Part shown: one piece after another, positions 36,601 through 53,793 of the stretch
How positions within the stretch are numbered: the stretch's first letter is position 1
Layout: each line of letters begins with the position of its first letter
From: a virus
Taxonomy: Duplodnaviria > Caudoviricetes
DNA length: 64,000 bases
Direction: 5' to 3' (one strand)
Virus record (IMG/VR): IMGVR_UViG_3300023048_000002
Location: 32,001-96,000 of that record
The notes under the pieces: model-generated
Database searches by the model: none
The model's input: only the letters and a program-made list of their open reading frames with translations
What the model was told of the DNA's origin: nothing
Position numbers and translations under genes: made by a program

Positions 36601-37378
36601 TGGTACTGGTGATGGTAATGATCCGGGGAGTGGTAATAACCTCAATGGATGGCTTGATGAATTCCGTGTCACCAAGGGTGTTGCACGAGATTTAACCATT
36701 CCACAAGTTGGACCCTTCCCTGATGTATCAGGGACAACTCCTATGCCTACACCATCTGTAACACCAAGCCCATCAGTAGGCCAAAGAACCTATTTTGACC
36801 CAAATAACTCTTCACCAAGTATAACGACTACATCAAGTAATTCATATCGTGTAGCTACACGATCAACTGATCCTGACAATTATGTAAGTATCAAATCATA
36901 TGGTCATTCAACCGGGAAATATTATCTAGAGATTGTAACGAATACGGTAGGAAGTTGGGATGGTGGTATATTAGCCGGTTTTGGTTTTTCTAATGCTTTA
37001 AATAATACCTATGCTGGTGCAGATGCTTCAACCTCGATAAGTCTACAGAGTAATACCAGTGGCGATAATGCTAATGGATATGGTTTTAAAAATTGTACCA
37101 ATTCATCAGTTGATCGTATAGATGGTGTCAATAGATACTTCCGTCTGGCAATTGATTTTGATGCTGGAAAATTATGGATAGGCTCTGAGACGATATGGGC
37201 ATGTGGTGGAAGTGATCCATCTATTGGCAGTTCACCATTTGGAAACTTCACACCAAATACCATGATGTATGTAATGGCTTCCATGTATGACTCAGGTAAC
37301 AGTGTAACTATGAATGCATACTCTGATGAAATGATCGGAGCCATACCTACTGGTTTCTTACCATGGGGTGGTTCATGA
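33647..37378 (+). CDS. large virion surface/fibre protein: Ig-like, several LamG/ConA-like and a SPRY-like domain joined by Pro/Thr/Ser linkers
   Basis: FPAGLSL..DG; LKLNETSG..AKDSSGNGRDG; VVSLLHLDG..FGTGDFTIE..GWLDEFRVTKGVAR; TGKYYLE..AIDFDAGKLW; (PT)n tracts. Confidence 0.8.
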   Translation: MSDNYSVIYLDMDTGNKLYLEKALGSGIAQFKYIQNVPAATWTLFHQQFSDKFVISITDENNEEIVPDSIVVFDLDTIAIHFSEPVMGKAILIIFDKSNALPSPTPTTTASNTLTPTPSVSKSVSATPTPTPTNTRTISVTPSITASMHASATPSPTVTLTATPTPTLTVTPSASSAVILLDGHVADALINDSVAGSYMIVNGDVSGTFSISNDMGDDATFSINSGTFPAGLSLNSDGTFAGAYNTAGSFTWVVKAVDSEGRVGMLEDSNQVATIAGYINATAVLGAQVQSSNALTPRGLWAFVMGDFDFVNRLITLYVDDVNRGTAPAEVGPQTNIDITIGGINYSSEGISGWRGDIWGAGIANGGLTADERSLLWNSGNGIRFDDLSTRTDSVSQSLWAKMAYAWQLDDDATGDTYIDLTGHKNLSKSYTLTNRDDSKFGRVTNFPKSGKLTAINSSSDGFESNDHSTYFAWVFAEVEQTDDFPSVISRYNGGGNFQGIRCFWTSDVTDPTPTPSPSVTPSPVTPTPTPSISMSVSLTPLVTPTPTPSVSTGPIIPYESAILNRGPLVFLKLNETSGLIAKDSSGNGRDGTYNNTTIIGANGLYGSPYSARTNFAGFNIPWDAGLDVTGDFTIFMTAKISSASNSNQYPKLVSKYAGDASSGYATYMLQMTGSSGDMTSRVSTTDNSYNDITTSYPVNDDITRLYAVRRSGNEVSYFINDTLIGSITVSGNNSISNSPIQIGGDNNARDGMDANVQWFSVFDYAIADNDITSLYYLASGITPTPTPSVSPSSTPNLTSIDPYFNNVVSLLHLDGDNGSQTITDQISSNQWTARLAAGLSNEKTLVSGTCASLPGTAYSYLSTPYNPIYDFGTGDFTIEITVMFRAFNGEYQIFASRQCDSPVSIAVQLRLNPSNIIETTLRSGDGSQVLNVAGTSVLSENTKYSIGVRRLNGIVELYVNNIMEGTIACAYDMYDAAQTHGWVLGTGDGNDPGSGNNLNGWLDEFRVTKGVARDLTIPQVGPFPDVSGTTPMPTPSVTPSPSVGQRTYFDPNNSSPSITTTSSNSYRVATRSTDPDNYVSIKSYGHSTGKYYLEIVTNTVGSWDGGILAGFGFSNALNNTYAGADASTSISLQSNTSGDNANGYGFKNCTNSSVDRIDGVNRYFRLAIDFDAGKLWIGSETIWACGGSDPSIGSSPFGNFTPNTMMYVMASMYDSGNSVTMNAYSDEMIGAIPTGFLPWGGS

Positions 37379-37427: not shown

Positions 37428-37862
37428 ATGAAGAAACAGTTAAATTTTCAACCGCTTATCGTAGAAGAACATCCTAAAGATTATAATGGTTACGAGTTCA
37501 TTACTCTAATCAAATATAACGATCAGAATTTCTTGACAATTGTTGACAATATCACGAATAACCAAATAGTAGCCTATGTTCTAGACTACTGTAATTTGAT
37601 TAAGATTGATGAAGAAGAGATTATTTCTATTGCAAATAATTGGTATGAGAATCACAGAGCCGAACATCCTATCTCTATCGAGTTCTTTAAACATGGAATT
37701 GCTCAAGACATGTCTAAATTAATCCGATGCTTCTCAACAGATTATGTAGTAAGAGTCATCGGACCTATCTATAAGTTCAATATGAAGGGTCCAACAAAGG
37801 TTAGACGTAGAAAGAAGAAATCCATCCCAGCAGCAATGGATTTCGTTGACAGAACAATTTAA
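37428..37862 (+). CDS. hypothetical protein
   Basis: 144 aa; CATAAATA at 37401-37408. Confidence 0.75.
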   Translation: MKKQLNFQPLIVEEHPKDYNGYEFITLIKYNDQNFLTIVDNITNNQIVAYVLDYCNLIKIDEEEIISIANNWYENHRAEHPISIEFFKHGIAQDMSKLIRCFSTDYVVRVIGPIYKFNMKGPTKVRRRKKKSIPAAMDFVDRTI

Positions 37863-38218
37863 AGCATTGACTGAATTAGTTCATAGGATTCTAGATTAAC
37901 GTATTCCTGCTTGTTAGTCTCAAAATCCTTTAACTGAGTTTCACCTTCTGGTGTTAACTGTCCCATCTGATCTACCAGATTGTTATTATACAAAGCATCC
38001 TTTCCGCTAGGTGACAGAGCAAGCTGATTCGCGCTCTGTTGCACGAGTCCTAGTCTTACCAACTCATCCTTAGCCTGAATAGTGTTAGGAGAACCTGATG
38101 CCATATCAAAGGCCTGCTGTGGTGTTGCAGAAGCGAACACAGTTACTAGCATACCTTTCTGTGAATCGGTTAGATTCGTTGTTGGTGCTTCGCTTAGGAT
38201 ATCCCTAATCTTTTTCAT
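37859..38218 (-). CDS. hypothetical protein
   Basis: 119 aa; MKKIRDILSE N-terminus. Confidence 0.7.
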   Translation of the reverse strand: MKKIRDILSEAPTTNLTDSQKGMLVTVFASATPQQAFDMASGSPNTIQAKDELVRLGLVQQSANQLALSPSGKDALYNNNLVDQMGQLTPEGETQLKDFETNKQEYVNLESYELIQSML

Positions 38219-38784
38219 AGTCGTCCCATTTTGATTAAATGCAATTGAAGAACCACGAGAAGAGCGTATGCCAGAGCATGCGCTTTTTTCATATGCGACT
38301 TATCTCTGATCGTGTAAAGCTCTTTACGATGTTCTTTCTTATTCTTTAGATATTTATCCAATATCTTTTCTTTCATTGGTCTAATGAAAGCAATGGCATC
38401 AGCAATTTCTAGAACGGATGTTGGCTTGATGGCATAGACAATATCGAAGTGACCAGTTAGATGGAACAGTTTGTCCACATTAGATCGTTCAAGCAATAGC
38501 TTCCAGTCTGGTTCAATATCCAGAAGGTCATCCATTTCTTTCTTAGAACTGAACAGCTTCAATGTATTATTGTTAAGCATGTCAATCTTGAAATACCCTT
38601 CCTGCTCTGCATCCTCATAAGGAATAGCAGACAGCTTGGTCATCCGATCCTTCGGAATGTTTTGAAAATATATGCCCACAGGATGGGGCTTCAATTGTCC
38701 GTTCTGAACCATTGAAGCCTTTGTGGCTAAGTTGAAAAGTTTGAAGGGATTGACATCCGGTCGGATGTCGATGTCTATATCCAT
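38215..38784 (-). CDS. DNA polymerase III alpha (DnaE)-like fragment 2, catalytic palm
   Basis: MDIDID (cf. PDIDIDF), HPVGIY, GYFKIDML (cf. GLxKxDxL), KAHALAYA (cf. KSHAAAYA). Confidence 0.85.
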   Translation of the reverse strand: MDIDIDIRPDVNPFKLFNLATKASMVQNGQLKPHPVGIYFQNIPKDRMTKLSAIPYEDAEQEGYFKIDMLNNNTLKLFSSKKEMDDLLDIEPDWKLLLERSNVDKLFHLTGHFDIVYAIKPTSVLEIADAIAFIRPMKEKILDKYLKNKKEHRKELYTIRDKSHMKKAHALAYALLVVLQLHLIKMGRL

Positions 38785-39434
38785 TTTTTTGAGCCCAATA
38801 CTAGTAAGTCTCTTTTGAGTATATCACATTCTTCCAATGTTTCAATCTCATCAATTCTTTTCTTGTATTGGTTCTTGATCTGTTCGACGGATATGAGTCG
38901 CAACAAATAATTTTTTCTTGCCTTCACGAATATGTGAGCTACTGATTCATGTGAACGGCCACTATGCTTTGATTCTAATTCTATTAGAATATTATGTTCA
39001 GTCTTTCCATCAAAGAAACGAACCGCTTCTTCAAAACGCTCAAGCATCAAATCTCGGGAATCGAAATCATCTTGAATGCTACTGACAACATTACGAATGA
39101 TTTCACGAACCATTCGTCTTAGCTCTTCTTTATAATGTTCTATAGATTTGTAATCAGTACTCTTGTACTTGACCGGAGGAATATGTTTCTGTAAGTCAGC
39201 AAGAAACTCCATAGCTTTCCCAATATCATGGAAATCATCTACGGAGCGTACTTTGATTCTCCACTGTTTCCAGAGTTCCATGATGGATGGTTCAAGTTCA
39301 ACGTCTTTCACAAAAATCCAATCACTGTTGGATAACATGCGGTTACGTATTGACTTTACTTCATTCCAATCATTTTTTCTCTTTTCATCAGTGGTAGATA
39401 TCTTTAGACTTTTTATTCTTTTAATTTCAGTCAT
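38775..39434 (-). CDS. tail-fibre assembly chaperone-like protein
   Basis: W.EVK.IRN.ML..SDW....D......W.QWR..VR motif. Confidence 0.6.
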   Translation of the reverse strand: MTEIKRIKSLKISTTDEKRKNDWNEVKSIRNRMLSNSDWIFVKDVELEPSIMELWKQWRIKVRSVDDFHDIGKAMEFLADLQKHIPPVKYKSTDYKSIEHYKEELRRMVREIIRNVVSSIQDDFDSRDLMLERFEEAVRFFDGKTEHNILIELESKHSGRSHESVAHIFVKARKNYLLRLISVEQIKNQYKKRIDEIETLEECDILKRDLLVLGSKKWI

Positions 39435-40618
39435 TAGTCGGTGTGGATATATCTGTACTGGACAGTTACGTTGTTAGTGTAAGCTACAACGCCACGAGCA
39501 TCCGTGACTTTGTAACGGAAGATTGTTGTGTAGCGTGGTGTACCAGTACCATCATCATCCGCACCAATGGTTGCCTTAGGACCAATCCATGAAATGGATA
39601 GCGCACCCGGTGTTGCTGTGTTGAATGAACCAAATGTATTCAAGCTATCACCACTGATCAAATCATAACCATAAGTGTATGGACCAACACCACCTACAGC
39701 AGTCAATGTCGATGATCTTGATGGAGTGCACTGGTCAGTTGATAGACCATTACATGAAGATACAAAGGATGATGCTGGAACGCCGATAACTAGCGGTGCT
39801 GCTGATGCTGATGGCGTGTTGGACGGTGTTGGAGTAGGTGATGGTGAAATCGTTGGTGAAGGTGTCAATGACGTTGCTGGTGTGGCTGAAATTGAGGCCT
39901 GTGGTGTTGGGGTAGGTGTTACGGTAGGTACTGGTGTGGCACTTCGTGTAACCGTTGGAGTAGGTGTTGCAGACTGACCAACAGAAGATGTTGGTGTTGG
40001 TGACGGTGTTGGTGTGATCTGTACTGTAGGCTGTGACTGATTTACGTTACCACCAATACCCACAATCATATAGTTAGCCAAACCACCAACCACGTTTGAT
40101 ACGCCAACGTATCTCATCTTCATAGACACCAAACCATTATTATCAGTTTGGCATTCTAAGTAATCAATCTTTTGTGGAATGTTGAATGGACTTACAATCC
40201 AAACACATTCCGAGTATTCAAATGTTCTACCAGAAGACTCACTGACAGGCTTAGGAATGTACTGACCGTCTGAAATGATGCCCCAATTGGCAGCAACGTC
40301 ATCTTCACGGGCAATAGGAATCCACTTTGAACCATCATAATAATTCAATAGCTTCTTTGTACTATTCCACCACCATTGACCTTCAATCTTATCCTGAAAC
40401 AAACTATCTACGGCACGATTTTGATCGGGATTGCCGGGATTATTTGCATCTTCTGGACATGCGAAGTTCTCAAGGATATGAATTAGATTATCCTGAAGTT
40501 CCTTACCATAGGCAAGACGCTTACGACCGAACAATGTAATGTCAGTCGAGTTATTAACCTCAGTCTCATCAATCATGATAGGAAGTTTGGTCTTGTCAGT
40601 AAAGTTAATAGTATACAT
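39434..40618 (-). CDS. virion structural protein, paralog 3 (no Hint domain)
   Basis: Shared N-domain [33 protein letters not shown]; PT linker; beta-rich tip. Confidence 0.8.
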
Positions 40619-40621
40619 TAA

Positions 40622-40792
40622 TTAATCCCAAGTCTCAAAGTCTTCAATTTTACTGCCAATCAAATCTGGTGTGAATTCCTCATCAGGCATTTCACAGACG
40701 ATATAGCCGTTCTTTGAAGCATCTTCAATATTTATTGGCTTGATAGCACTACCAATGATTACATTATCTGTTTGTCTTACAATTAAAAACAT
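40622..40792 (-). CDS. hypothetical 56 aa protein, not in the ORF track
   Basis: Hand-translated MFLIVRQTDNVIIG...; AAGGA RBS. Confidence 0.6.
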   Translation of the reverse strand: MFLIVRQTDNVIIGSAIKPINIEDASKNGYIVCEMPDEEFTPDLIGSKIEDFETWD

Positions 40793-40801
40793 AGTTAATC
40801 C

Positions 40802-40975
40802 TTAAATTAGGCACTCTTGATACGTACCATCATTACAGAAGCATCCATCCATGATAGATGAACCTCCGCCATGACCTAAACATTGCTTATCACAAGTAGT
40901 GCAGCGCTTGATATCAATAGTCAAGTCTTCACGTTTAGGATATTTATTTTTCTTTGGCTTCTCGTTATCAGTCAT
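40802..40975 (-). CDS. small Cys-rich protein, 57 aa, not in the ORF track
   Basis: Hand-translated MTDNEK...RCTTCDKQCLGHGGGSSIMDGCFCNDGTYQECLI; AAGGT RBS. Confidence 0.65.
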   Translation of the reverse strand: MTDNEKPKKNKYPKREDLTIDIKRCTTCDKQCLGHGGGSSIMDGCFCNDGTYQECLI

Positions 40976-40984
40976 ATTATTACC

Positions 40985-42376
40985 TTAAACGTCGGAACAG
41001 CAGTTTGGTGGAATCCAAGTACCTGTACCATCTGCACAATAGCAGCACTTAATGTTATGGTGAAGAATAAATGCATCTGACTGTTCACCAGCCCAAAAAC
41101 ACTTATCGCCAACAGTGATATGCTGAACCCAAATATCACCCTCATCAGTTACGCTAATAGCTTCTTCCCACTTTGATTCACCGTCAACCATGACAGCTAC
41201 ATGCTTACCTAAAACGAATGGTGCTTCAATGACACCTTCAGTTGTAGGAATTGGTGCAGTAGTTGAACATACTAGCGAGATACCAGTTCTGGTAACAATT
41301 CTTACTGACGGCTGCAAGCTTGGTTCAGAATAAGTGACAATACCTGTACCCGGAGTCAAATCATCTTGATCGGCTAAGATCATAGAATCGCCCGGTTTAA
41401 TTTCACCAGCAATTCTTCCATCAGGCAGGAATGAGTTAACTGCTACACAGCAGTGAGCCTGTATCGCTTCACAACGCTGACATGCATTCAAGAATGGTGA
41501 TGGCGATGGCGTGATAGTTGGAACTGGTGTATTTGAAGGTACTGGTGTGTTAGATGGTGCCGGAGTATTTGATGGTGCTGGTGTTGGCGAAGGAACAGGT
41601 GTAGGTGTTCTTGTGCTAGTTGGCACTGGTGTATTAGTTGGAGCCGCTGTTCTTGTTGGGGTAGGTGTAGGTGTTCTTGTTACAGTAGCCGTTACTGACG
41701 GTGTTGGTGTAGCTGATGCCGTTGGTGTAGGTGTAGGTGTTCTTGAAACGAAAGGAGTTTGAGGAATAACATTCATATTACCTGCATTAACGTTTCCACT
41801 AATAGCAATAATCATGTAGTTAGCAATGCCTTTCGATAAAGCATCATCACCATAGGCTCTGTACTTCATTGAAACTATACCAGAGTTATCCGTAGTGCAA
41901 AGCATGTAAGTGAAAGCCTGTGGAAGCTTTGCAGGAGATACAGCCCAAATGCATTCACTATAATCATAAACGTAACCATTATAACGATTAACTGGACGTG
42001 GAATTTGCTGGCCGTCCTGAATCTGGCCCCAATTAGCTGCAACATCACCCTGTGTTCTTAAAATTTCCCACTGTGCACTATTGAAAACATACATCTTCTT
42101 ATCAGTGCTGTTAAACCATAACTGACCTTCTGTAGGAGTATCCAATGCACCACCATTGATCGTGGCGTCTGGAAATACATTTGAGTCAGTTGAAGCTGCG
42201 TCTTGAGGGCATGCAAATCTTTCAAGAAGATGTAGCATGTTTTCATTTAGCTCTTCACCATATTCAAGATCAACTCTACCAAACAATGAAATTGCAGTAG
42301 AGGTGTCATCCTTAGTACCTTCTTTAAGGGTAATAGGAGTTTTGTTGATATCTGTAAATCTTACGTTGTAATCCAT
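40985..42376 (-). CDS. virion structural protein, paralog 2, with a Hint domain flanked by Cys-rich segments
   Basis: Shared N-domain, PT linker, CVAVNS...ILHHN. Confidence 0.8.
   Translation of the reverse strand: MDYNVRFTDINKTPITLKEGTKDDTSTAISLFGRVDLEYGEELNENMLHLLERFACPQDAASTDSNVFPDATINGGALDTPTEGQLWFNSTDKKMYVFNSAQWEILRTQGDVAANWGQIQDGQQIPRPVNRYNGYVYDYSECIWAVSPAKLPQAFTYMLCTTDNSGIVSMKYRAYGDDALSKGIANYMIIAISGNVNAGNMNVIPQTPFVSRTPTPTPTASATPTPSVTATVTRTPTPTPTRTAAPTNTPVPTSTRTPTPVPSPTPAPSNTPAPSNTPVPSNTPVPTITPSPSPFLNACQRCEAIQAHCCVAVNSFLPDGRIAGEIKPGDSMILADQDDLTPGTGIVTYSEPSLQPSVRIVTRTGISLVCSTTAPIPTTEGVIEAPFVLGKHVAVMVDGESKWEEAISVTDEGDIWVQHITVGDKCFWAGEQSDAFILHHNIKCCYCADGTGTWIPPNCCSDV
41054..41449 (-). other. 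Hint (intein-like/BIL) domain, 132 aa
   Basis: Cys1 block A CVAVNSFLPDG..AGEIKPGD, block B VRIVTRTG.SLVCST, block F/G VQHITV...FWAG...ILHHN. Confidence 0.8.
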
Positions 42377-42378
42377 TG

Positions 42379-44253
42379 TTAATCCGATGCTTGATTTAAT
42401 TTGTTATGGTGTAGGATAAATGCATCTGCTGTTTCACCAGCCCAAAAACATCTATCATCTACAGTAATGTGTTGAATTTCTTTATCCCCAACACTCTCAA
42501 CCATGATGACAACTTCCCAATTGGTTAGATTGTTTCTCATTACTGGAATATTTCTATTTAACAAATCAGGTGCCATCATGTAACCATTATCATAGGTAGG
42601 GATTGGTGCTGTGGTTGAGCATACCAATGATGCGCCAGATTCAGTTACGATTCTTACGCAAGGCTGTACCTTTGTTGTGGAGTATGAGACATCACTAAGA
42701 GTTGTATCAAAGTAGTTATATGGATCAGCAGTTACCAACTGATCACCAACATTGACTGCCTGTGCTACAGAACCATCAGGGAATACGGAATCAATTGCTA
42801 CGCAACCTCCACCACTTGTTGATGTGCAGTTAGCAGTTGAGAACCAAGAGTCTGTATAGGAGCCCTGTGGAGTTGTATAGGAAGTACCGTATACATTACC
42901 CTGTAGACCAGATGGGGTGTATAGAACAAGCTGTTTGCCAAGAGCATCAGTGATGACGACATAGCTAGCACTAGAAACAGACAATGACCACTGACCATTA
43001 TCACAGTTGTTAAAGATACCTGTAATGCCGATAACTGCGGTTGCAGATAGTGAGCTAGATGAATCTGCACCTGTTCTTAGCGTGCTGGTTGATGCACCAG
43101 ATGCACCAGCATAGCTTCGTGTGGTTGTGGTTGCGATAGTTGCACCAGTTGTGGTGTCAACCAATGAGGAACCAAAATTAACGTTACCAAACTCTACACT
43201 ATATGGCGCTGAACCACCTGAAATTTCCTGTACGATAACACTCATATTGTTCAAGCAACTTACGCGAGTGGAAGCTGTTGTTGTACATGGTGAAGGAATT
43301 TCTGTGTTACCAGCCTGTGGATATCCCTTAGATGGTGAGATATACATCGTAGCTCTCAATGGTGCAATCGTCTTAGATGGCGTAATTGAAGGCGTTGGGG
43401 ACGGTGTGGTAGATGCCGTAGGGGTTGGCGTAGTAGATACGGCCGGTGTCGCTGTACGGGACACTGAAGGCGTTGGAGACGGTGTAGGTGTACGCGTTGG
43501 CGTAGGAGTTACTGTAATACCCGTAGTTGCTGACGGAGTAATTGTTGGTGTTGGTGATGCACCCACCGAAGGCGATGGATTTGGCATATTTGTTGGGGTT
43601 GGTGTTGGTGAAGGAATAGGTGATGGCTGACCATCGTCTGTTCCTTCATTCTGGTTAAACTTAACACCAATGATCTGGTAAAAGGCATAGCCTTCTGAGA
43701 CAGTTGTGAACTGTCCCATTCTATATTGTGCTGTTACCTTGGCTTGACTATCTGTATAACAAATCATGTAATCAACTTCATCAGGGAAGTTGAACGGGCT
43801 AACAATCCAGCTACATTCATCGTAGCTGAATTCATAACCTGTAGATGCTGAAATTGGTCGAGGGAGGTTTGCACCATGAGCGATAATGCCGCTATTACCA
43901 GCAATGTCACTTAATGAACTGTTAGCAATCCATTGAGAGCCATCATAAACATACAATTTCTTTCTAGTGGAGTTCCACCATAGCTGACCTTCAGTTGGTT
44001 GCTTAAGCACACCACCGTAAGCCTGATTGTAGTCTGGATAGTTAGGGTTTGAGGCATCTTCAGGGCAAGCAAAGTTTTCCAGCATGTGCAACATATTCTC
44101 ATCGAATACCTCGCCATACTCTTTACGTGACTTGCCCAAAAGGGTTATATCCAATACATTTTGAATCAGCGTTTGTTTGTTTACAATGATAGGATTTTTA
44201 GTATTATCAGTATACTGTAAATTGTACACGCCGTCAGCGCAATTGTTAGCCAT
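42379..44253 (-). CDS. virion structural protein, paralog 1, with a C-terminal Hint domain
   Basis: Shared N-domain, PT linker, Ser/Thr-rich beta domain, GGG|CVAIDS...ILHHN; TATAAATA at 44283-44290. Confidence 0.8.
   Translation of the reverse strand: MANNCADGVYNLQYTDNTKNPIIVNKQTLIQNVLDITLLGKSRKEYGEVFDENMLHMLENFACPEDASNPNYPDYNQAYGGVLKQPTEGQLWWNSTRKKLYVYDGSQWIANSSLSDIAGNSGIIAHGANLPRPISASTGYEFSYDECSWIVSPFNFPDEVDYMICYTDSQAKVTAQYRMGQFTTVSEGYAFYQIIGVKFNQNEGTDDGQPSPIPSPTPTPTNMPNPSPSVGASPTPTITPSATTGITVTPTPTRTPTPSPTPSVSRTATPAVSTTPTPTASTTPSPTPSITPSKTIAPLRATMYISPSKGYPQAGNTEIPSPCTTTASTRVSCLNNMSVIVQEISGGSAPYSVEFGNVNFGSSLVDTTTGATIATTTTRSYAGASGASTSTLRTGADSSSSLSATAVIGITGIFNNCDNGQWSLSVSSASYVVITDALGKQLVLYTPSGLQGNVYGTSYTTPQGSYTDSWFSTANCTSTSGGGCVAIDSVFPDGSVAQAVNVGDQLVTADPYNYFDTTLSDVSYSTTKVQPCVRIVTESGASLVCSTTAPIPTYDNGYMMAPDLLNRNIPVMRNNLTNWEVVIMVESVGDKEIQHITVDDRCFWAGETADAFILHHNKLNQASD
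42403..42804 (-). other. Hint (intein-like/BIL) domain, 134 aa
   Basis: GGG|CVAIDSVFPDG...VGD, VRIVTESGASLVCST, IQHITV...FWAG...ILHHN. Confidence 0.8.
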
Positions 44254-44300
44254 TAAACCCTCTAGGAACCTATTATCTTAACTATTTATAACCAAGACAA

Positions 44301-44978
44301 TTAAATACCTAGCTCGCGATTAATACTTTTAATCTCATGAACCTTCTCAGGGTTATTGATCAAATGCTGTTTCCAGACACTTACGTCAATAATTTGACTG
44401 AACAAAACACGTTCTTCCTTGTTAGTCTTGAAGGTCATGAAGTCCATGAATTTCTTACTTGGGAGAAGTAGCCATGGCGATAACTTACGAGATGTAATGT
44501 AACGAATAATCTGAATTGGTGTCACCTTGTTAAAGACTTCACCCGTCTCACAGCCTTGCTCAATTGAAATATCACGAATGGTTTCAATCGATAGATCAAT
44601 CTTGGTGTCAATAGGATATTCTTTATCGAAATTTTCGATGTAATAATCATATACATCATAATCACACCAGTTAAAAGGTAGTAAATCCTTCTTAATCATT
44701 AATTCAATATATCCAATCCTGTCAGGGATGGACTGAGACTTACAGAACTTAGAGAACTCTACGAAAGCATTAAAGTAACGGGAACTGGTGAAATTCTCCA
44801 CGGTAACTGGTGGTCGATTTGAAATCTTGCGCCACTGGTTAAACGTAAGGTATGCGATATGACCAATCGGTTTAGCGAATAGATCATAACGCTTCATTTT
44901 CTCGCACTTGTGCTTTAGATAGTTAGCTTCTCTTTTGAAGTTCTTTCCACAAAAATCACAAACTAGGTTCTTTTCCAT
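44301..44978 (-). CDS. zinc-finger-containing hypothetical protein
   Basis: CDFCGKNF.RE..YLKHKC at the N-terminus; LSPWLL. Confidence 0.75.
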   Translation of the reverse strand: MEKNLVCDFCGKNFKREANYLKHKCEKMKRYDLFAKPIGHIAYLTFNQWRKISNRPPVTVENFTSSRYFNAFVEFSKFCKSQSIPDRIGYIELMIKKDLLPFNWCDYDVYDYYIENFDKEYPIDTKIDLSIETIRDISIEQGCETGEVFNKVTPIQIIRYITSRKLSPWLLLPSKKFMDFMTFKTNKEERVLFSQIIDVSVWKQHLINNPEKVHEIKSINRELGI

Positions 44979-45438
44979 TTAATTCTTTCTTCAACTTGGT
45001 CATGGTTTCTTTATCAGTTCCGATATCTTCGGCCATCTGAATGATATCATCATTTGACAATATATTCAAATAGTCCAATGCAACGGAAGACGAACAGCCC
45101 GTGTTCTCTTTAATCACCCTGATAGTCTCTGAGTCTTTGTCCTTGGACTTTCTCTTGGTCCAGTAAGGTCGTTTACCCTTATCCACATGCGAGGCCATTA
45201 GAAGCTTATATAGAAGGTGAGGGTGCTTATACATCTGAAAGCAAACGGTGTTTACCAAGCCATTAATTAGCTTGATCTGATTTGCATTCTTTGTACCCGC
45301 TTCCCACTTCATCAAAACCAATGGTGCTAACTTGCGTGTCTGGTAATCCTCCAAACTATCGAAAAAGGCTACATTGCCTTTTTCGATGTGCTTGAGTACA
45401 TCAAAGATATCTGGTGTGTTCTCTGTCTTATCTGTCAT
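44956..45438 (-). CDS. clamp loader small subunit (T4 gp62-like)
   Basis: DIFD.L..I, KHP.LLY.L, W.K, ALDYL.ILS; near the large subunit; start set to MTDKTE. Confidence 0.65.
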   Translation of the reverse strand: MTDKTENTPDIFDVLKHIEKGNVAFFDSLEDYQTRKLAPLVLMKWEAGTKNANQIKLINGLVNTVCFQMYKHPHLLYKLLMASHVDKGKRPYWTKRKSKDKDSETIRVIKENTGCSSSVALDYLNILSNDDIIQMAEDIGTDKETMTKLKKELNGKEPSL

Positions 45439-45751
45439 AATTTCTGGTATCCACCACACCAATCTTGGCTAAACAAAACTTGCACTCAACATGAGTTCCG
45501 TAGTGTACCAATTGATCACGAGGATGGATACATTCTTTAATCATGACTGCACGTAGCTCTTCGACCTCATCAAGAAGAGGCTTTCTCTTCTCAATGATAA
45601 GGGTACGAATTTCATCCTCAATTGGTTCTAACTCTCTAGCCAAGGCTTCAATCTTATCCTTCTTACGCTTCCATGACAGGCGTTCATTTTTATCACGATA
45701 TGTTGTGATCTTGTCGATGTCACTCTTAATCTTGTCTTCTGAAATATGCAT
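45428..45751 (-). CDS. hypothetical protein with a C-terminal CxH...CxxC
   Basis: 107 aa ORF. Confidence 0.65.
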   Translation of the reverse strand: MHISEDKIKSDIDKITTYRDKNERLSWKRKKDKIEALARELEPIEDEIRTLIIEKRKPLLDEVEELRAVMIKECIHPRDQLVHYGTHVECKFCLAKIGVVDTRNYDR

Positions 45752-45754
45752 GGT

Positions 45755-46690
45755 TTAAATCTCTGATAGTTTAATTAGGCAAGATGCAAAGTTGATTTCA
45801 CGATCAGCTACAAATGCATGGCGATAAAGGTGATCGGCAATGACGACGATACCAGCTTTCCATTTCTTGGTTTCTGTGAATTTACCAATTTCATGTAGGT
45901 AATCGTAAAGGAACTTGTAGCAATCTTCCCACTTGTTGTCTGGAATATTTTCAGCTAGATAAGTGCGAGCCTTATCCCACTGGTCATTAGTAATGAATTC
46001 TACGATTCCTAGCATATGTTCCGATGCAGCAGTAAGGTTTGCAGAATCGAATGGCATCATCTTACCATTGCGAACTGCTGCCTGTGCTGTGGTCAACAAA
46101 CGGCGAAAGTCTGGATAACAGTTATTAACATAATCATCTAGAACTTCAATACCATCGAACTTCACCTTCTCTCTCTTAAGGATAGTAGCAAAGCGGATGG
46201 TCATCTCATCCTTATCTAGGCTATCGAATTTGATAGGAGTGAAACGCGAGCGTAGTTCAGGGGTGAGGTTGTTTGGATAATTACATGTAAAGATGAAACG
46301 TGCATTGTCCGAATACTCTTCAATCTTTGCACGAAGAATCTTCTGTGCACCAGCACTTAGACCATCAGCTTCATTGACGAATACAATCTTATAATCGAAT
46401 GACAGTGGCATGGCTGAAATGAAGTTGTGAACCTTATTACGCATGGTGTCCACATTGTTCTCATCAGAGCCATTGATGACTAAGAAGTCGGCATCATCCA
46501 TTTCAAAGATTTCCTTAATTAGGAAAGCTAGGCTGGTCTTACCTGTACCTGCTGATCCATGTAGTAATAAATGTGGGATGTCTTTATTTTCTAGATACGC
46601 AAGAATTTGTGCTTTGGTATCTTCGTTCTTGAAGATGTATTCTTCAATTGTCTTGGGGGTATGTTTTGTATACCAGAGTTGCTTTGACAT
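45755..46690 (-). CDS. clamp loader large subunit (T4 gp44/RFC AAA+)
   Basis: LW..KH.PK, PHLLLHGSAGTGKT, INGSDE, EAD.L...AQ..LR, FIFTCN, LRSR. Confidence 0.92.
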   Translation of the reverse strand: MSKQLWYTKHTPKTIEEYIFKNEDTKAQILAYLENKDIPHLLLHGSAGTGKTSLAFLIKEIFEMDDADFLVINGSDENNVDTMRNKVHNFISAMPLSFDYKIVFVNEADGLSAGAQKILRAKIEEYSDNARFIFTCNYPNNLTPELRSRFTPIKFDSLDKDEMTIRFATILKREKVKFDGIEVLDDYVNNCYPDFRRLLTTAQAAVRNGKMMPFDSANLTAASEHMLGIVEFITNDQWDKARTYLAENIPDNKWEDCYKFLYDYLHEIGKFTETKKWKAGIVVIADHLYRHAFVADREINFASCLIKLSEI

Positions 46691-46728
46691 GAAACAGTTG
46701 TCCTATGATTCATGCTATTATTTCACAT

Positions 46729-46756
46729 AAAAAAACGGGAGTCAATGACTCCCGTT
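46729..46756 (-). terminator. intrinsic terminator overlapping the stop codon
   Basis: AACGGGAGTCA-T-TGACTCCCGTT followed by a T run. Confidence 0.75.
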
Positions 46757-47929
46757 GATTATATGGTTTGCCTCTTCGGCAATTTCTCGTTTTATTCTAT
46801 CTATAACGTCTTGTCTAGTTGATGCTTCTTCCTCTGCTTTGAATTCCCGTACTGGTTCTTCGGGTTCATCTATAACAGGGATAGCAGCCTCAAGTTCATC
46901 ATGTAATTCTTCTAGGGATTGTGATTCCTCAGAGAAATCATTTGGGTACTCGGGTGGTAGTCTTTCACTAGGACCATCATAATCTTGAGGACTATAGTGA
47001 AATATATCTTCCTTTTCTTCTTTATCCTCAATAGGAGATAATTCTAAATGAACTGGTACTGGCTGTTCGACAACTTCTGGAACAATGTAAAGTTTAGGCT
47101 CTACGTAAGCTGCTTCAACTTGAATTGACTCTTCTGCAACTGGTTCCTCTACTTCAGGCTCAGACTCTTCTTCAAAGAGTTCAAGATCATCTAAATGTGC
47201 AACTGGTACAACCTTATCCTGCTTGGAAATTTTTGTCTCTTCTTTTAATCTCTTTCTTTCATCTATAGCAGTATTAATTGCTAGAGTGAATGAGACTGCT
47301 AAAGGATCGAATACAAAGATCAGGAGCATTGTTAGATAAGCAATGGAGTTGTTTGGGTCTTGGCGTAAAACCTTAGCAACATACATGATAGGACCAATTT
47401 TGGCTTCAACTGTCAACTGGTGGGATTGTAATTCACCAATCTCTTTGTTTAAGCGATCAATATTAGGACCAAGGGTCTTGTATTCCGTGTCGAAAGTCTT
47501 CATCAACTTTTGGCGTGCGGAAACCATGTTATTAGGAATCTTTTCAACCTGACTATCGATCTGAGCTTTACGGGTAGTTAGTCTCTCAACTTCGGCCTTG
47601 TCTGCTGTAATCTTCTGTGCGACTTCCGCCACTGGAATGTTTTCTTGTTGGTATGCAGCGGTTAGATAACCAAAGATACCAATCGATGTGATAAACATCA
47701 GAACACCTACAGCAAGTAACAAATAAGCTTTCAATGCAAATGAAATCTTATTCCAATACCTGTGTAGGAAAGATGCGGCAACAAGCTTAGCAAATTCTAA
47801 GCTTGCGCCCATTATAGTAACGGATATTGCGGAAGCAGAGTAGATCATAGCTAGACCGTAAACGCTGAAGAAACCAGCAGTACCAGATAGCGCTAATGCT
47901 GCAATGATTAATAACGCAATAAACATCAT
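46742..47929 (-). CDS. multi-pass membrane protein with coiled coil and acidic tail
   Basis: 3 N-terminal TMs, coiled coil, GPIMY..IFVFDPLAV TM. Confidence 0.8.
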   Translation of the reverse strand: MMFIALLIIAALALSGTAGFFSVYGLAMIYSASAISVTIMGASLEFAKLVAASFLHRYWNKISFALKAYLLLAVGVLMFITSIGIFGYLTAAYQQENIPVAEVAQKITADKAEVERLTTRKAQIDSQVEKIPNNMVSARQKLMKTFDTEYKTLGPNIDRLNKEIGELQSHQLTVEAKIGPIMYVAKVLRQDPNNSIAYLTMLLIFVFDPLAVSFTLAINTAIDERKRLKEETKISKQDKVVPVAHLDDLELFEEESEPEVEEPVAEESIQVEAAYVEPKLYIVPEVVEQPVPVHLELSPIEDKEEKEDIFHYSPQDYDGPSERLPPEYPNDFSEESQSLEELHDELEAAIPVIDEPEEPVREFKAEEEASTRQDVIDRIKREIAEEANHIINGSH

Positions 47930-47935
47930 AACTCC

Positions 47936-48265
47936 TTAGAATAAACCGGTTGGTTTGTCTGTGGATGTAGCCATAACTTTTTCAAAGCTAGTTGACCACT
48001 TCTTTACTTCGCCTACCTTGAAGCCTTCTGTCCACATTAGCTGTTCGATAAGAATATATGAACCAACACTAACGCGTTCAGGAACATCAGGGCCAACTGC
48101 TTCAACAAGAGCCCAACGTGGCGTCTTAATATCTTCAACCTGATTTCTTACTGTCAATCCCCAATCAGTCTCATTACTAAATGTACCTGTAGAAATGGTC
48201 TGAATGAAGCTAAAGACAATGTTCTTTCTTAAGGGCTTATAACTTTCAATATTATCGTAACTCAT
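47936..48265 (-). CDS. GroES-like co-chaperonin
   Basis: KPLR..IV, V.AVGPDV...V.VG..IL. Confidence 0.7.
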   Translation of the reverse strand: MSYDNIESYKPLRKNIVFSFIQTISTGTFSNETDWGLTVRNQVEDIKTPRWALVEAVGPDVPERVSVGSYILIEQLMWTEGFKVGEVKKWSTSFEKVMATSTDKPTGLF

Positions 48266-48280
48266 CTTATTCCTTACTGT

Positions 48281-48703
48281 TTACTTCTTGACTACGCGTG
48301 TCTTAGTAACTGTCTGTGACTTCTCAAGCTTAGGAGATACTAAAGGTGTAACTTCCTTTTCTGGTGCTGGATCGAATCCATCAGTATCAAATTCATCATC
48401 AACTGGTGTAGACATGAAGATTTCTTGTTCTGATTCTGACTCTGGCTCGTCACCATCATCCTGAGCCTTAGCCCTCTGTTCTGCAAGCTTCTGTCTTACA
48501 GCCTGTTCATTGGCAAGCATTTCACCAATACGCTTTGAGGATGCTCTACGGCGGCGGCTGTTTACATAGTTCTCACGCTGAATAGTTGGATCAGTCTTAT
48601 CTTTAGTGCCAGTCTCTAGCTGCCTTTTCATGCTGTTTAAATTTGCATGAAATTTATCTAGGTCTACAGTTTCGCCTCTCATGCTGACATATTTTTTACT
48701 CAT
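48281..48703 (-). CDS. hypothetical protein
   Basis: 140 aa, SMRGETVD N-terminus. Confidence 0.7.
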   Translation of the reverse strand: MSKKYVSMRGETVDLDKFHANLNSMKRQLETGTKDKTDPTIQRENYVNSRRRRASSKRIGEMLANEQAVRQKLAEQRAKAQDDGDEPESESEQEIFMSTPVDDEFDTDGFDPAPEKEVTPLVSPKLEKSQTVTKTRVVKK

Positions 48704-48711
48704 AATTCACC

Positions 48712-49269
48712 TTATCTGAAAAATTCTTTTAAATCTAGCTCGTATTCAACACTGTCTACACTATGTAGTCCAATCAAATACAAAACATACGAATTACATG
48801 AACTCCCACGACCAGTGCCCCAAACAACTTCGTTCTGTCTGAAGATATCAAGAATATAGATGATAGCACGCAAGATGATTTCCATATCGAAAGTCTTAAA
48901 CAACTCTAGTTCTTTTGAAACTCTTTCGATACGTTGATCAATTTGGCCTTCTGTGAATCTATATCCACCACTGGTATCCGGCTTCTCTACAATTTCAAGA
49001 AGCTTTTTATGGACGTAACTTTTTATATTTATCTGTTTATAAAAGTCGGGAATTTGCCATGTATGATCCAAGTGATCAAGATCACGTTTCACATTTACAG
49101 ATAATGGCTGATTCATTTTATTGAATAATTCAATATCCTCATTAAGCGCATTCACATGAATGCCACCCGTAATGGACCCACCATTCAAGATGTATTCCAT
49201 TAATTGATCTGACGTAAACGTAATATCTCCATCAAACCATAAAACTCTATCAGCTAGGACGGTCTTCAT
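48712..49269 (-). CDS. DNA polymerase III alpha (DnaE)-like fragment 1
   Basis: ERV..EL..F, VWGTGRGSS.NSYVLYLIG...VD...YEL...EF (cf. GPGRGSAAGSLVAY.LGIT..DP..Y.L.FERF); start set to MKTVL. Confidence 0.85.
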   Translation of the reverse strand: MKTVLADRVLWFDGDITFTSDQLMEYILNGGSITGGIHVNALNEDIELFNKMNQPLSVNVKRDLDHLDHTWQIPDFYKQINIKSYVHKKLLEIVEKPDTSGGYRFTEGQIDQRIERVSKELELFKTFDMEIILRAIIYILDIFRQNEVVWGTGRGSSCNSYVLYLIGLHSVDSVEYELDLKEFFR

Positions 49270-50178: not shown

Positions 50179-51669
50179 TTAATTCTTAGTGTATTCAATC
50201 TTCTGCTTTGAGAAAGGATATTCGTGCTTCTTATAATGCTCAACACGCTTTCTCTGGTGAATTCTACTATACTTTAAATTACTAGAAATGTCAATTACTT
50301 CAATGAAGTCTTTATCTGGTGCTTTACGTAATCCACGCCCGATTGCCTGAATGGTTCGAATATAACTTTTACCTAAATCAAGGAAGAATAGATAGAAGAT
50401 TCGTGGAATGTTCAAACCGGTGGCTGCAAGCTGTGACGTAGCAATAGCTACAACATCGTCGTGATCCTTGAATAGCTTATATACGCTTCTACGGAATGCC
50501 TTCTTATCCTTTGAATATACGAAGTACGAACCTTCAATTAATTCTGCTAGCTTCTGACCAACTTCGACTGAGTTTACAAGGATCAAGGTATTACCCTTAT
50601 CTTTTGCTCTCTTCTCCATGACCAGCTTTTTAACATAATTCAATCTACGTTCGTTCTTATTCAGTCTTCTCTTTTCAATGTCATATTCAGGGAATAGCAC
50701 TTCAAGGAAGTCATTATAAGATTTACCCTTCGATTCTTCAGGGAACTCAATCTGCCATATGGCATACTCTGGCTTATAGTCTTCAACCAACTCAAGCATG
50801 TAGATCATCAACTGTGCAAGCCAGCCATTTTCGATCAACTGCTTAGAGGTTACCGTAAACTTGACATCACCCAATGTAACACGCACTGACATTCGATCAA
50901 CATCTGGCTCTGGAAGTGTTCCAGTTACACCGATTTTAACGTAAAGATGTGATCCGTAGTTATTGAGGATTTCCTTCAATATCTGTCCTGTAACACCATG
51001 ACATTCATCCACAATGGCTACTTGGAACATACCCATCATCTCAGGATTGTTTTGAAGTGCCTGCCACGTACTAATGATAATAGGATGATTAATATCCTTA
51101 ACATCACCACTGTATTCACCAACATCGATATCTAGGTCTTTAAAGTCTTCAACACCCTGACTAACAAGGTCGGATGTAGGAACGATCATGATAACCTTCA
51201 ATCCACATACGTCATTGTATAGCTTAGACAGTGCAGCACACATGATTGACTTACCAGCACCAGTACCAGCTAGGATGATTCCACCATTATCTTGTGTAAT
51301 GGCATTAACACCTTTGACCTGATGGTCACCCAATGTGATACCTACAGTTTCAAGATAATTCTCATCAATAACAGGGATGTCTAGAGTGAATGTTTCTCTA
51401 TTATCCATTAGAGAAATCTTGTATCCCCATCGTTTAATGATAGGTAGCATTTCTTCTAATAGATTATTGTAGGTCTTACCACCCTTGGAGTAGAACGATA
51501 TTCTACCGTCCCACTGACCAAGCTTGTACTTCTTACTGAAACGATAATTCTCCGCATAAGGAGAATACTTATCAACCATCCATTTGTTGTCTTTTGGGTC
51601 AAGACCAATGATAACGCAGTTGACTTCATCTAGAACTTTAATGATTACTTTCTTTTCAAGCGTCGTCAT
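50179..51669 (-). CDS. uvsW: SF2 DNA helicase, UvsW-like
   Basis: GTGAGKS, STWQ, VDECH, TGT, TGLNIP, QAIGRGLR. Confidence 0.92.
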   Translation of the reverse strand: MTTLEKKVIIKVLDEVNCVIIGLDPKDNKWMVDKYSPYAENYRFSKKYKLGQWDGRISFYSKGGKTYNNLLEEMLPIIKRWGYKISLMDNRETFTLDIPVIDENYLETVGITLGDHQVKGVNAITQDNGGIILAGTGAGKSIMCAALSKLYNDVCGLKVIMIVPTSDLVSQGVEDFKDLDIDVGEYSGDVKDINHPIIISTWQALQNNPEMMGMFQVAIVDECHGVTGQILKEILNNYGSHLYVKIGVTGTLPEPDVDRMSVRVTLGDVKFTVTSKQLIENGWLAQLMIYMLELVEDYKPEYAIWQIEFPEESKGKSYNDFLEVLFPEYDIEKRRLNKNERRLNYVKKLVMEKRAKDKGNTLILVNSVEVGQKLAELIEGSYFVYSKDKKAFRRSVYKLFKDHDDVVAIATSQLAATGLNIPRIFYLFFLDLGKSYIRTIQAIGRGLRKAPDKDFIEVIDISSNLKYSRIHQRKRVEHYKKHEYPFSKQKIEYTKN

Positions 51670-52129
51670 ATAGAGTGATATCCTCCAATGCGGCAGTTCT
51701 GATCTTGATGATGTTGTTCAACATAAACGCTCTATTCTTGAACTGTTCTGATATAGATGAAAGCATGTTATACATTTCATAAACATCAAGATAGATTTGT
51801 TTATACTTCAAGAACGTTTTATCAGAGTCGATCATCTTATCCTTTTCCATGGAATTATGATCCTTTACAGAATACTTGTTTATGTTATGTAATGCTTCGC
51901 TGCGAACCTGCTTAACCTTCATCTCATAATATTCTAAGAGTGACTTGGTATCGACTCTTATTTCATCATAATAAGAAAGTAGTGATACTTGCTCAACGTT
52001 TGCCAACTGAATGTTCTTGGCATTGAGTGAAAGGTCTTTCTTCCAATCTTTTATTTTTTTATCTATTTCTTTGAGAACATCATCAACATAGTCATCGACG
52101 TTCTCCCCTCTTAGTTTTCTTAAAATCAT
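51656..52129 (-). CDS. recombination mediator, UvsY-like
   Basis: Helical; IDSD...F..R.FML.NI.K.R; between uvsW and uvsX. Confidence 0.65.
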   Translation of the reverse strand: MILRKLRGENVDDYVDDVLKEIDKKIKDWKKDLSLNAKNIQLANVEQVSLLSYYDEIRVDTKSLLEYYEMKVKQVRSEALHNINKYSVKDHNSMEKDKMIDSDKTFLKYKQIYLDVYEMYNMLSSISEQFKNRAFMLNNIIKIRTAALEDITLYDDA

Positions 52130-52695
52130 TAGTTCAATACCCTTGGTATATTCTTTGAGAATATCATATATTGAAACTTCTGTAAATCATCAAACTCATC
52201 AATGATAGCTGATATTGGATTATCAGTCACATCTAGGTCTTTGACTGCATCTGTCTTGTAAGTGATATTTTCAAGTTCTTCGATACCTGAAGCCAAATAC
52301 TTATGGTATGACTGGATTCCGTATTCTTTTATGAATGCATCTATCTTGTTGATATAATCGCAAAGTTCTATGGCATTCATAGTTTCGACTGCTTTAATAG
52401 ATAACACAATTTTAATTGGTTCTACCTGAAATGAATCAATGTTTTCTTCAGTTACCGTGTATGTAGTTCCATCGGATGTCTTAATGACATCACCGATAGT
52501 GAAGGTAGCAACGAAATCAATAACCACGAAGTTTTTATTGTTTGGATAATACTGGATTTCTGACAGACGAATATCTTTGTCTGTCTTGCTGTAATGCCTT
52601 AGAGCTTTAACAAGGTTCACTTGAAAAAGCTCTAAGATTTCCTTAGTGGTGGATTCATACTCAGAGGTTCTTTTTTCCAAAAGTTCTTTGAGCAT
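52129..52695 (-). CDS. hypothetical protein
   Basis: 188 aa ORF. Confidence 0.7.
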   Translation of the reverse strand: MLKELLEKRTSEYESTTKEILELFQVNLVKALRHYSKTDKDIRLSEIQYYPNNKNFVVIDFVATFTIGDVIKTSDGTTYTVTEENIDSFQVEPIKIVLSIKAVETMNAIELCDYINKIDAFIKEYGIQSYHKYLASGIEELENITYKTDAVKDLDVTDNPISAIIDEFDDLQKFQYMIFSKNIPRVLN

Positions 52696-52701
52696 ATTTA
52701 A

Positions 52702-53793
52702 TTAATCCTCTGTGTCAGATGAAGCTTCATCCATCATCTCTAGAATCTTTGCCTTACGAGAGACTTTATCAGTACTTAGGTCAAGTTCTTTTGAATCAAT
52801 AACCACATCAATGACTTCATCTTCTTTAGCAATCAATGCTTCTAGAACTCTCTGCTGGAACTTATGGAAGTTGCCTTTCTGGAACTTCTCATCACCGTAC
52901 ATATACCAGCTACCATTACGTGTCACTACACCAAGAGACTCAGCAACCTCTAGCAAACCTGTGAATGGGTCCATACCAGTTTCATATGGAACTTCAATCT
53001 TTGCTGCTTGGAAGGGTTTGGTGAAACGAGTTTTGTAACCCAATACCTTCATTGTAATACCTTCATAGCGAGACTTATCTTCACTCTTAAGCATCAACTT
53101 CATTACCATCAGCATCTGTGAGAATGCAAACTTGGTAGCCTCAGTGACAACGAATGGCATAGACAATGCTGCGATAGGGTCTTGTTCTTTGTAAGCCTGC
53201 TTTGTGCATAGGCCAACGAATGGGAGATTCTTGATGTCCTGTACGAACGTCTGTAGAAGCTTCTTCAACTGCTTAGCCTGCTGGCCCTGATCACCCTTCT
53301 GATCACCCTTATCATAATTCTTTAATTCAGAATCAGTCATTAGCATGTCTAGGGAGTCGATGACAATTAGCATACGGTCAGTCATGCCATGCTTACGGTA
53401 CAAACGAGTGAACGTTGAAAACTGTTCAGATGCCTGTACGATGGTCTTAACACCTCTGTAGAAGAAGTTAGGTGCATTGATATCAATACCTAACTTAGCG
53501 AGGTAGCCTTCATCTAGTGCGTTCTCAGAGTCGATGACAAGAATACCACAACCCTGATCTTGTGCAGCCTTAATAACGTTGGCTACTACGAATGATTTAC
53601 CTGCACCAGATGGTCCGGTTACAGCACCCCAGCGACCCTGTGCAAATCCTTCTAGGTACTTACCTGATACGATCTTATTTAAAACGTAATTGCCTGTGGT
53701 AATAAAGAACTCAGGTGCATTATTCGTCATCGAAATGCCCTCAGCCTTTGAACCTTCTTTTTGGAACTCTTTTGAAAATGCTTCAAAACCCAT
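52702..53793 (-). CDS. uvsX: RecA/UvsX recombinase
   Basis: TG.Y.LN..SG, GPSGAGKS, IDSENALD, VIDSL, KTRF. Confidence 0.92.
   Translation of the reverse strand: MGFEAFSKEFQKEGSKAEGISMTNNAPEFFITTGNYVLNKIVSGKYLEGFAQGRWGAVTGPSGAGKSFVVANVIKAAQDQGCGILVIDSENALDEGYLAKLGIDINAPNFFYRGVKTIVQASEQFSTFTRLYRKHGMTDRMLIVIDSLDMLMTDSELKNYDKGDQKGDQGQQAKQLKKLLQTFVQDIKNLPFVGLCTKQAYKEQDPIAALSMPFVVTEATKFAFSQMLMVMKLMLKSEDKSRYEGITMKVLGYKTRFTKPFQAAKIEVPYETGMDPFTGLLEVAESLGVVTRNGSWYMYGDEKFQKGNFHKFQQRVLEALIAKEDEVIDVVIDSKELDLSTDKVSRKAKILEMMDEASSDTED

Follow-up and report, generated by a model that had tools for sequence, protein, structure and literature searches.

Two short genes in an uncultured tailed phage raise the question of whether a replicative polymerase active site can be encoded by two separate proteins, and what such an enzyme would be used for. 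The stretch analysed (hereafter the window) comprises 64,000 nucleotides, positions 32,001 to 96,000 of the IMG/VR virus record IMGVR_UViG_3300023048_000002, and is part of a 171-kb record estimated to be about half complete. An initial annotation had read the two genes as a minimal DnaE (DNA polymerase III alpha, Pol III alpha) that is split at the active site into two genes about 10 kb apart. Both were found as intact open reading frames (ORFs; Table 1), here called fragment N and fragment C, and the mapping of their junction agrees with that reading. The two proteins are almost certainly members of the family known as split minimal DNA polymerase III alpha in the group 2.2 (Rak2/XacN1-like) jumbo phages, and are regarded as its two subunits. 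They probably form a non-covalent heterodimer with a single palm, which would act as an accessory and poorly processive DNA polymerase that selects deoxynucleoside triphosphates (dNTPs).

The start of fragment N was placed at the ATG at 49269 (185 amino acids) in preference to a GTG at 49332 (206 amino acids), because a purine run (AAGAAG) 3 nucleotides before the ATG, the stop codon of the upstream gene 7 nucleotides before it and the start of the family alignment agree. The protein matches the Pfam model PF07733 (DNA_pol3_alpha) over model positions 14-93 of 260 (E value 1.4e-9, above the cut-off) and is a member of PHROG 11127 (E value 8e-46, profile of 171 amino acids). An AlphaFold2 model was generated with the family alignment as input (predicted local distance difference test, pLDDT, 91.6), and its residues 66-185 were superposed on E. 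coli alpha 275-393 using VIA-align (Z score 12.7, root-mean-square deviation 2.9, 116 residues aligned). Comparison with 48,161 PDB representatives, carried out independently of Foldseek, yielded Z scores of at least 5 for seven C-family polymerases only, the next match having a Z score of 4.1. In the profile of the family, residues 106-182 align with E. coli DnaE 316-392 (GPGRGSG...LLFERF, E value 7e-5), and the C-terminal end reads ...GTGRGSS...KEFFR. Among 67 homologues W150, G153, R154, G155, S156, R116, E120, H169, D172 and F183 are invariant, as are D13, G14 and K61 of the small N-terminal domain. This domain occupies the place where a PHP domain would be; for residues 1-65 a wide PDB search gave no fold match (best Z score 3.1), and neither a family match nor a usable lead in the ESM Atlas was obtained. 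PHROG 13169, a family of 463 amino acids labelled 'DNA polymerase', is matched as well, by the last 80 residues of fragment N at profile positions 325-408; further phage C-family polymerases may be truncated or split near there.

Fragment C is a member of PHROG 11778 (E value 6e-59, profile of 197 amino acids), and its AlphaFold2 model, generated in the same way, has a pLDDT of 95.4. Residues 1-189 superpose on E. coli alpha 401-782 (Z score 9.9, 181 residues aligned) and also on Taq 462-840 and PolC 971-1297, all with VIA-align. The top Foldseek matches of both fragment models were chains of Pol III alpha, DnaE1 and PolC only, with probabilities of 0.5-1.0. Both fragments also give weak but significant matches, at consecutive profile positions (322-429 and 578-702), to PHROG 405, the full-length DnaE (~1190 amino acids) of group 3.2 jumbo phages, a host-like single chain with a PHP domain that serves as the main phage replicase (PMC7824862). 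Invariant residues and lengths of fragment C were taken from the best 120 of 303 homologues (90% clustering). D2, D4, D6, H34, G37, D46, P55, K66, D68, W94, P121, D129, K138, Y145, H169 and Y173 are invariant in these, and R135 is the same residue in 119 of the 120. All three equivalents of the catalytic aspartates (D4, D6 and D68) thus lie in fragment C, as had been claimed. The motifs GYFKIDML, LFHLT and AFIRP correspond to E. coli GLVKFDFL (K553, D555), FQLES and ALFRP, respectively. Residues 58-156 align with E. coli 545-661 with a score that was reached by 1 of 300 shuffles, and the score for residues 96-150 was reached by none of 300. The best local alignment of KAHALAYA (residues 167-174) lands at E. 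coli 758-767, where the structural alignment predicts it; the consensus of this helix in the family is [RK]KSHAxxY. The model places the steric-gate helix at the conserved C-terminus of fragment C; in the E. coli helix, H760 has been proposed to keep out ribonucleotides and is reported to be invariant in Pol III alpha (PMC8485763).

The two aligned ranges abut in the E. coli structure and together make up one palm with the proximal fingers. Fragment N, which had been noted to end at the equivalent of GRGS...LLFERF, stops at the equivalent of E. coli residue 393, and fragment C, which had been noted to begin with MDIDID, starts at the equivalent of residue 398, with no extra residues at the junction. 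E. coli reads ...ERFL NPERVSM PDFDVDF here, so that the phage break falls in the seven-residue loop just before the catalytic D401 and D403; as this is a surface loop, no element of secondary structure is lost. An intein-split DnaE was rejected on the protein lengths and the junction mapping, since neither protein has room for an intein half, which bears out the earlier claim that inteins are lacking. Because the junction carries no additional residues, any association of the two fragments would have to be non-covalent. In the cyanobacteria Synechocystis and Nostoc the catalytic subunit is likewise made from two distant genes, and intein halves ligate the full-length protein. The phage arrangement is like the cyanobacterial one in the distance between its genes and unlike it in having no inteins and a different break position.

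The total of 374 amino acids, given as about 375 in the initial annotation, is contained in two polypeptides, unlike the single chain of 1160 amino acids in E. coli DnaE. Shared with the bacterial enzyme (E. coli, PDB 2HNH, 4JOM, 5FKV) are the palm fold, the GRGS loop, the DxD plus D triad, the lysine of KxD, the FQLES and RPGP motifs and the KSHxxxY helix. The 189 residues of fragment C cover 382 residues of E. coli: the thumb (433-510) is skipped, with a beta-hairpin at about residues 27-30 in its place, the finger segment ~662-756 is shrunk to about ten residues, and the alignment stops at ~782, beyond which lie the HhH/beta-binding, OB and tau-binding regions. The phage pair thus differs from E. 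coli DnaE in having no PHP domain, thumb or distal finger segment and nothing past ~782, and in having an N-terminal domain of 65 amino acids of its own. The Pfam models for PHP (PF02811) and HHH_6 (PF14579) gave no match in the record of the window, in XacN1 or in three nearly complete (98-100%) IMG/VR relatives, and were positive in control genomes. Matches to DNA_pol3_finger in the same record and four relatives were confined to fragment C, for which this was the only Pfam match and lay below threshold. The earlier statement that PHP, OB and clamp-binding regions are absent is therefore upheld for PHP and HHH_6 by model searches and for the region past ~782 by the end of the alignment, the OB fold not having been searched separately.

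Together the two fragments hold a complete C-family nucleotidyltransferase active site and the dNTP-binding elements, and neither does so alone. Conservation of the metal ligands, the GRGS loop and the steric gate indicates that the pair is still equipped to bind two metals together with the triphosphate and sugar of an incoming dNTP. Fragment N contributes the helical N-terminal half of the palm and, within it, the G-R-G-S phosphate-binding loop. Fragment C contributes the strand with the metal-binding D4 and D6, the third aspartate and the lysine (D68 and K66), and shortened fingers with the FQLES-like and RPGP-like motifs and the His-x3-Tyr helix. In the proposed mechanism, the two would associate non-covalently to rebuild one Pol-beta-like active site. 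When fragment N is modelled by itself, the segment preceding GRGS is coil of lower confidence; its counterpart in the full-length enzyme would be paired with the DxD strand. With two Mg2+ ions bound, dNTPs would then be added to a primer as directed by a template. Because the thumb and duplex-binding domains are missing, the enzyme would be distributive unless other phage proteins hold it on DNA. The initial annotation had likewise proposed a heterodimeric mini C-family nucleotidyltransferase; structure mapping, invariant residues, co-occurrence and purifying selection favour this, and it is from these that we infer its assembly and activity.

That annotation had also proposed a non-replicative role such as priming, repair or end modification. 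A related reading takes the pair as a specialised Pol-beta-type nucleotidyltransferase that is no templated DNA polymerase and acts in terminal transfer or end tailing, de novo priming, or the synthesis of a nucleotide signal or modification. Only the core survives and the parts that bind a DNA duplex are gone, the N-terminal domain of fragment N, for which no fold match was obtained, could bind another substrate, and the Pol-beta superfamily holds many such enzymes. Against this stand the finger motifs specific to the C family and the invariant His-x3-Tyr helix, all kept under strong selection, which in the cellular enzyme contact the templated nascent base pair and the dNTP sugar (PMC8485763). 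The retained FQLES-like and RPGP-like motifs and the invariant steric-gate histidine indicate dNTP-selective templated synthesis, and a non-templated enzyme is considered unlikely. Priming and template-independent end modification are accordingly the less likely parts of the earlier proposal, and repair or other accessory synthesis would be the likelier part.

Homologues of fragment C are encoded at >574 IMG/VR loci, and the best 120 of the 303 obtained at 90% clustering are all 188-197 amino acids long. An exhaustive profile search with fragment N yielded 349 representatives (50% clusters) at an E value <1e-30, of which the top 150 are 114-205 amino acids long and all end at the last positions of the profile. 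No fused form was found in a search for longer fragment C homologues or among the top 150 representatives of fragment N, which is weak negative evidence. Among cultured phage records, tblastn detected fragment C in 96 and fragment N in 102, and the numbers per genus agree; the carriers are Rak2-like phages, PA5oct-like phages, XacN1, Atu_ph07 and phages like these, and in all of them the two halves map to different sites. The closest cultured relatives are the Xanthomonas phages Xoo-sp13 and XacN1 (46-57% identity), in both of which the genes around the halves are in the same order as in the window. A megablast search of the 12-kb region against phage records gave no match, so that relatives are visible at the protein level only. 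Exactly one fragment N is present in 9 of 10 large IMG/VR records that carry fragment C, the exception being a contig estimated to be 90% complete, with fragment C at its end. Both halves are on the same strand in every relative with the pair. They are 9.9 kb apart in the window, and elsewhere their spacing is 0.76 kb (locus L016), 4-43 kb, or up to ~189 kb (G003).

The ratio of nonsynonymous to synonymous substitution rates (dN/dS) was estimated against close metagenomic relatives. It is 0.049 for fragment N (dS 0.42) and 0.05-0.10 for fragment C (dS near saturation), comparable with the neighbouring clamp loader (0.048), which marks both as constrained genes and not remnants. It had been suggested earlier that co-occurrence and dN/dS in relatives would be informative; the first proved consistent, and the second gave no sign of the relaxed selection typical of remnants. 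Decaying or non-catalytic remnants of a full-length DnaE, or two proteins that act independently of each other, would suit ORFs that are small, distant and probably in different transcription units (with the hairpin at 46756-46734 between them). The low dN/dS, the invariance of all catalytic residues, lengths that are constant across hundreds of clusters and the co-occurrence of the genes speak against this, as does the division of the active site, in which the metal ligands are missing from one half and the phosphate loop from the other. Decay into remnants was rejected because of the dN/dS values and the invariant residues, and the reading as a whole is very improbable.

In locus L016 (8005-10567), from a distant relative, a tight gene row is formed by a PHROG 11058 gene, fragment N, an 81-amino-acid ORF containing cysteines, a 192-amino-acid ORF and fragment C, so that the halves are 756 bp apart. 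The two ORFs between the halves match no PHROG, and hence nothing points to a homing endonuclease having caused the split. A homologue of PHROG 11058 with a C2H2-like N-terminus is present in the window at 44301-44978, as the last gene before the fibre cassette. The two halves may once have been near neighbours, as in L016.

Fragment N lies inside a T4-type replication and recombination module, with UvsX, UvsY and helicase genes upstream and clamp-loader subunits downstream. A full-length family B polymerase ORF (882-1004 amino acids) was found in five of five relatives, XacN1 included. Because complete relatives carry this T4-type polymerase together with clamp loader, helicase, UvsX and UvsY, the heterodimer would serve as an accessory polymerase in gap filling, repair or recombination-linked synthesis, and not as the main replicase. 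The published suggestions for split Pol III alpha are synthesis of one strand or repair (Iyer et al., 2021; PMC7824862). The first of these would make the heterodimer one of two replicases, synthesising for example the lagging strand beside the family B enzyme. The place of fragment N between helicase and clamp loader in the window, XacN1 and many relatives is in keeping with such a division of labour, and in breadth of conservation and in constraint the pair is on a par with core replication genes. It is set against the absence of a thumb, HhH, OB or recognisable clamp-binding tail, the C-terminus of fragment C being modelled as the steric-gate helix; moreover, T4-type replisomes use a single family B polymerase for both strands. 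A second replicase is thus improbable, and for the accessory polymerase that is preferred here any one physiological role should be regarded as tentative at best.

Several observations count against the picture of an accessory templated polymerase. No true match among PDB sequences came from a profile search with fragment C, hhalign of fragment C against E. coli DnaE gave a probability of 5% only, though the region was aligned correctly, and the alignment of the steric-gate helix taken alone is not significant (score reached by 21 of 300 shuffles). Since fragment C resembles solved DnaE structures only weakly in sequence, it was assigned from its fold, its match to PHROG 405 and its motifs. 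An enzyme stripped of its thumb and of every duplex-binding domain may not be capable of ordinary primer extension. No family B polymerase was found in the window's own 171-kb record, which is about half complete. Finally, the catalytic residues of the DnaQ-like protein described below are lost, so no proofreading partner is evident in this phage.

The coordinates of the features are given in Table 1. About half of the 10-kb separation between the two halves is due to a variable cassette of a tail-fibre-assembly-like gene and PHROG 15511 paralogues; XacN1 has the same local gene order with a longer cassette, a run of hypothetical proteins at this place. A PHROG 15511 segment is also borne by a 1243-amino-acid ORF at 33647-37378 on the plus strand. 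Between the halves, at 46756-46734, there is a strong terminator-like hairpin, and a promoter-like site is present at 38845-38818, near fragment C. Both are consensus matches only, and sigma-70-like promoter matches were not enriched over shuffles (54 versus 46 +/- 7). The hairpin and the site suggest, as sequence features, that the halves are in separate transcription units.

Table 1. Coordinates of the two polymerase fragments, their motifs and neighbouring features in the window.
Feature	Position	Strand	Description
Fragment N	48712..49269	-	185 aa; N-terminal (NTP-binding, GS-motif) half of minimal Pol III alpha palm and small N-terminal domain
Fragment N, N-terminal domain (residues 1-66)	49072..49269	-	Small beta/alpha domain, motif WFDGD; D13, G14, K61 invariant
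G153-R154-G155-S156 (fragment N)	48802..48813	-	G[GS] motif of Pol-beta-like nucleotidyltransferases; E. coli G-R-G-S 361-364; invariant
Fragment C	38215..38784	-	189 aa; C-terminal metal-binding half of palm and reduced finger domain
D2-I-D4-I-D6 (fragment C)	38767..38781	-	E. coli D399/D401/D403; D4 and D6 equivalent to two catalytic Asp; invariant in 120/120 homologues
K66-I-D68 (fragment C)	38581..38589	-	E. coli K553-F-D555; D68 equivalent to third catalytic Asp; K66 and D68 invariant in 120/120
H169-A-L-A-Y173 in KAHALAYA (fragment C)	38266..38280	-	E. coli KSHSAAYA 758-765; H169 equivalent to proposed steric gate H760; H169 and Y173 in 120/120
Helicase, UvsY-like and UvsX-like genes	50179..53793	-	Upstream of fragment N
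Clamp-loader large subunit	45755-46690	-	PHROG 168, E value 3.5e-72; between the two halves
Clamp-loader small-subunit-like gene	44956-45462	-	PHROG 225; between the two halves
Variable cassette	38775..44253	-	Tail-fibre-assembly-like gene and three tandem PHROG 15511 paralogues; interrupts replication module

Since the halves would be transcribed separately, fragment N with the replication genes and fragment C directly after the fibre cassette with its own promoter-like site, the split could be a control device for timed, assembly-gated synthesis. This, or a second reading in which the 374-amino-acid pair is a self-sufficient minimal C-family polymerase, is rated as quite unlikely.

Several neighbours accompany the two halves. 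Two genes at 46742-48265 on the minus strand, orf109 (weak PHROG 931 match) and orf395, accompany fragment N in 16 related loci, normally just downstream and in L016 upstream; the hairpin at 46756-46734 and a promoter-like site come after orf395, directly before the clamp-loader gene. A 119-amino-acid ORF (37859-38218, minus strand) overlaps the stop codon of fragment C by 4 nucleotides, which suggests from the gene layout that it is translationally coupled to fragment C. In 10 of 80 related loci it was detected downstream of fragment C, and in the closest of these the two abut directly; its dN/dS is ~0.10, and it has a counterpart with the same overlap in XacN1 ORF227. The most conserved neighbour of fragment C is a 144-amino-acid protein of PHROG 11637 (37428-37862, plus strand), convergent with it on the opposite strand; it was found in 28 of 80 related loci, usually within ~3 kb downstream of fragment C (up to ~9 kb), with 25-76% identity. 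Pfam searches gave nothing meaningful for the conserved neighbours orf119, orf144, orf109, orf140, orf395, orf127 and orf162, nor did the Atlas for orf144, and no third subunit that would supply a thumb or DNA-binding function was found among the conserved neighbours in these searches.

A DnaQ/epsilon-like protein is encoded at 31907-32488 on the minus strand, syntenic with XacN1 ORF223 (32% identity, E value 6e-26). Its canonical exonuclease residues are lost, with AIHCHTTG, ANSFHIPFL and SSLYIIKE in place of AIDCETSG, AASFDKFFL and HNALEDI in XacN1; it had no Pfam match at an E value <=0.1 and a weak match to PHROG 192. The gene lies 3.3-9.2 kb downstream of fragment C in six of seven related loci and on the opposite strand in the seventh. 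The mini Pol III of this phage may be without a standard proofreader.

The arrangement was described as a "split minimal DNA polymerase III alpha" of group 2.2 jumbo phages by Iyer, Anantharaman, Krishnan, Burroughs and Aravind (2021, Viruses 13:63; PMC7824862; sections 3.4.1, 3.5, Fig. 3b), and a truncated alpha-like ORF had been noted in earlier genome papers (CBB_328, PMC5259590; Atu_ph07 gp316, PMC6102473). The initial annotation mentioned similar fragments annotated in other jumbo phages and did not know of this description, in which the same roles are suggested. The two proteins, their break point and the T4-like replication context are all shared with the known systems (e.g. XacN1 ORF245/ORF228, CBB_328, Atu_ph07 gp316). 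The present pair does not differ from them in kind; its phage is uncultured (IMG/VR), and the DnaQ-like neighbour is without the catalytic residues kept in XacN1. In the literature searched, no experimental work on split minimal Pol III alpha was found. The arrangement is thus real and under selection but already described, and the pair in the window, which belongs to an uncultured XacN1-like phage, is one further member. New are the residue-level mapping onto E. coli DnaE including the conservation of the steric gate, the explicit loss of the thumb, the dN/dS estimates, the size and constancy of length of the metagenomic family and the range of spacing between the two genes.

The counts show that the split is universal across hundreds of sequence clusters, and a polymerase whose phosphate-binding loop and metal ligands lie on separate polypeptides is unusual. 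If the split were a control device, the active site would form only when both halves are expressed, and if the pair were self-sufficient, it would set the minimum size of a catalytic unit in the bacterial replicase lineage. The pair would be, as argued by Iyer et al. (PMC7824862), a natural minimal model of the bacterial replicase core. Split minimal Pol III alpha is also widespread in jumbo phages, probably as an auxiliary enzyme.

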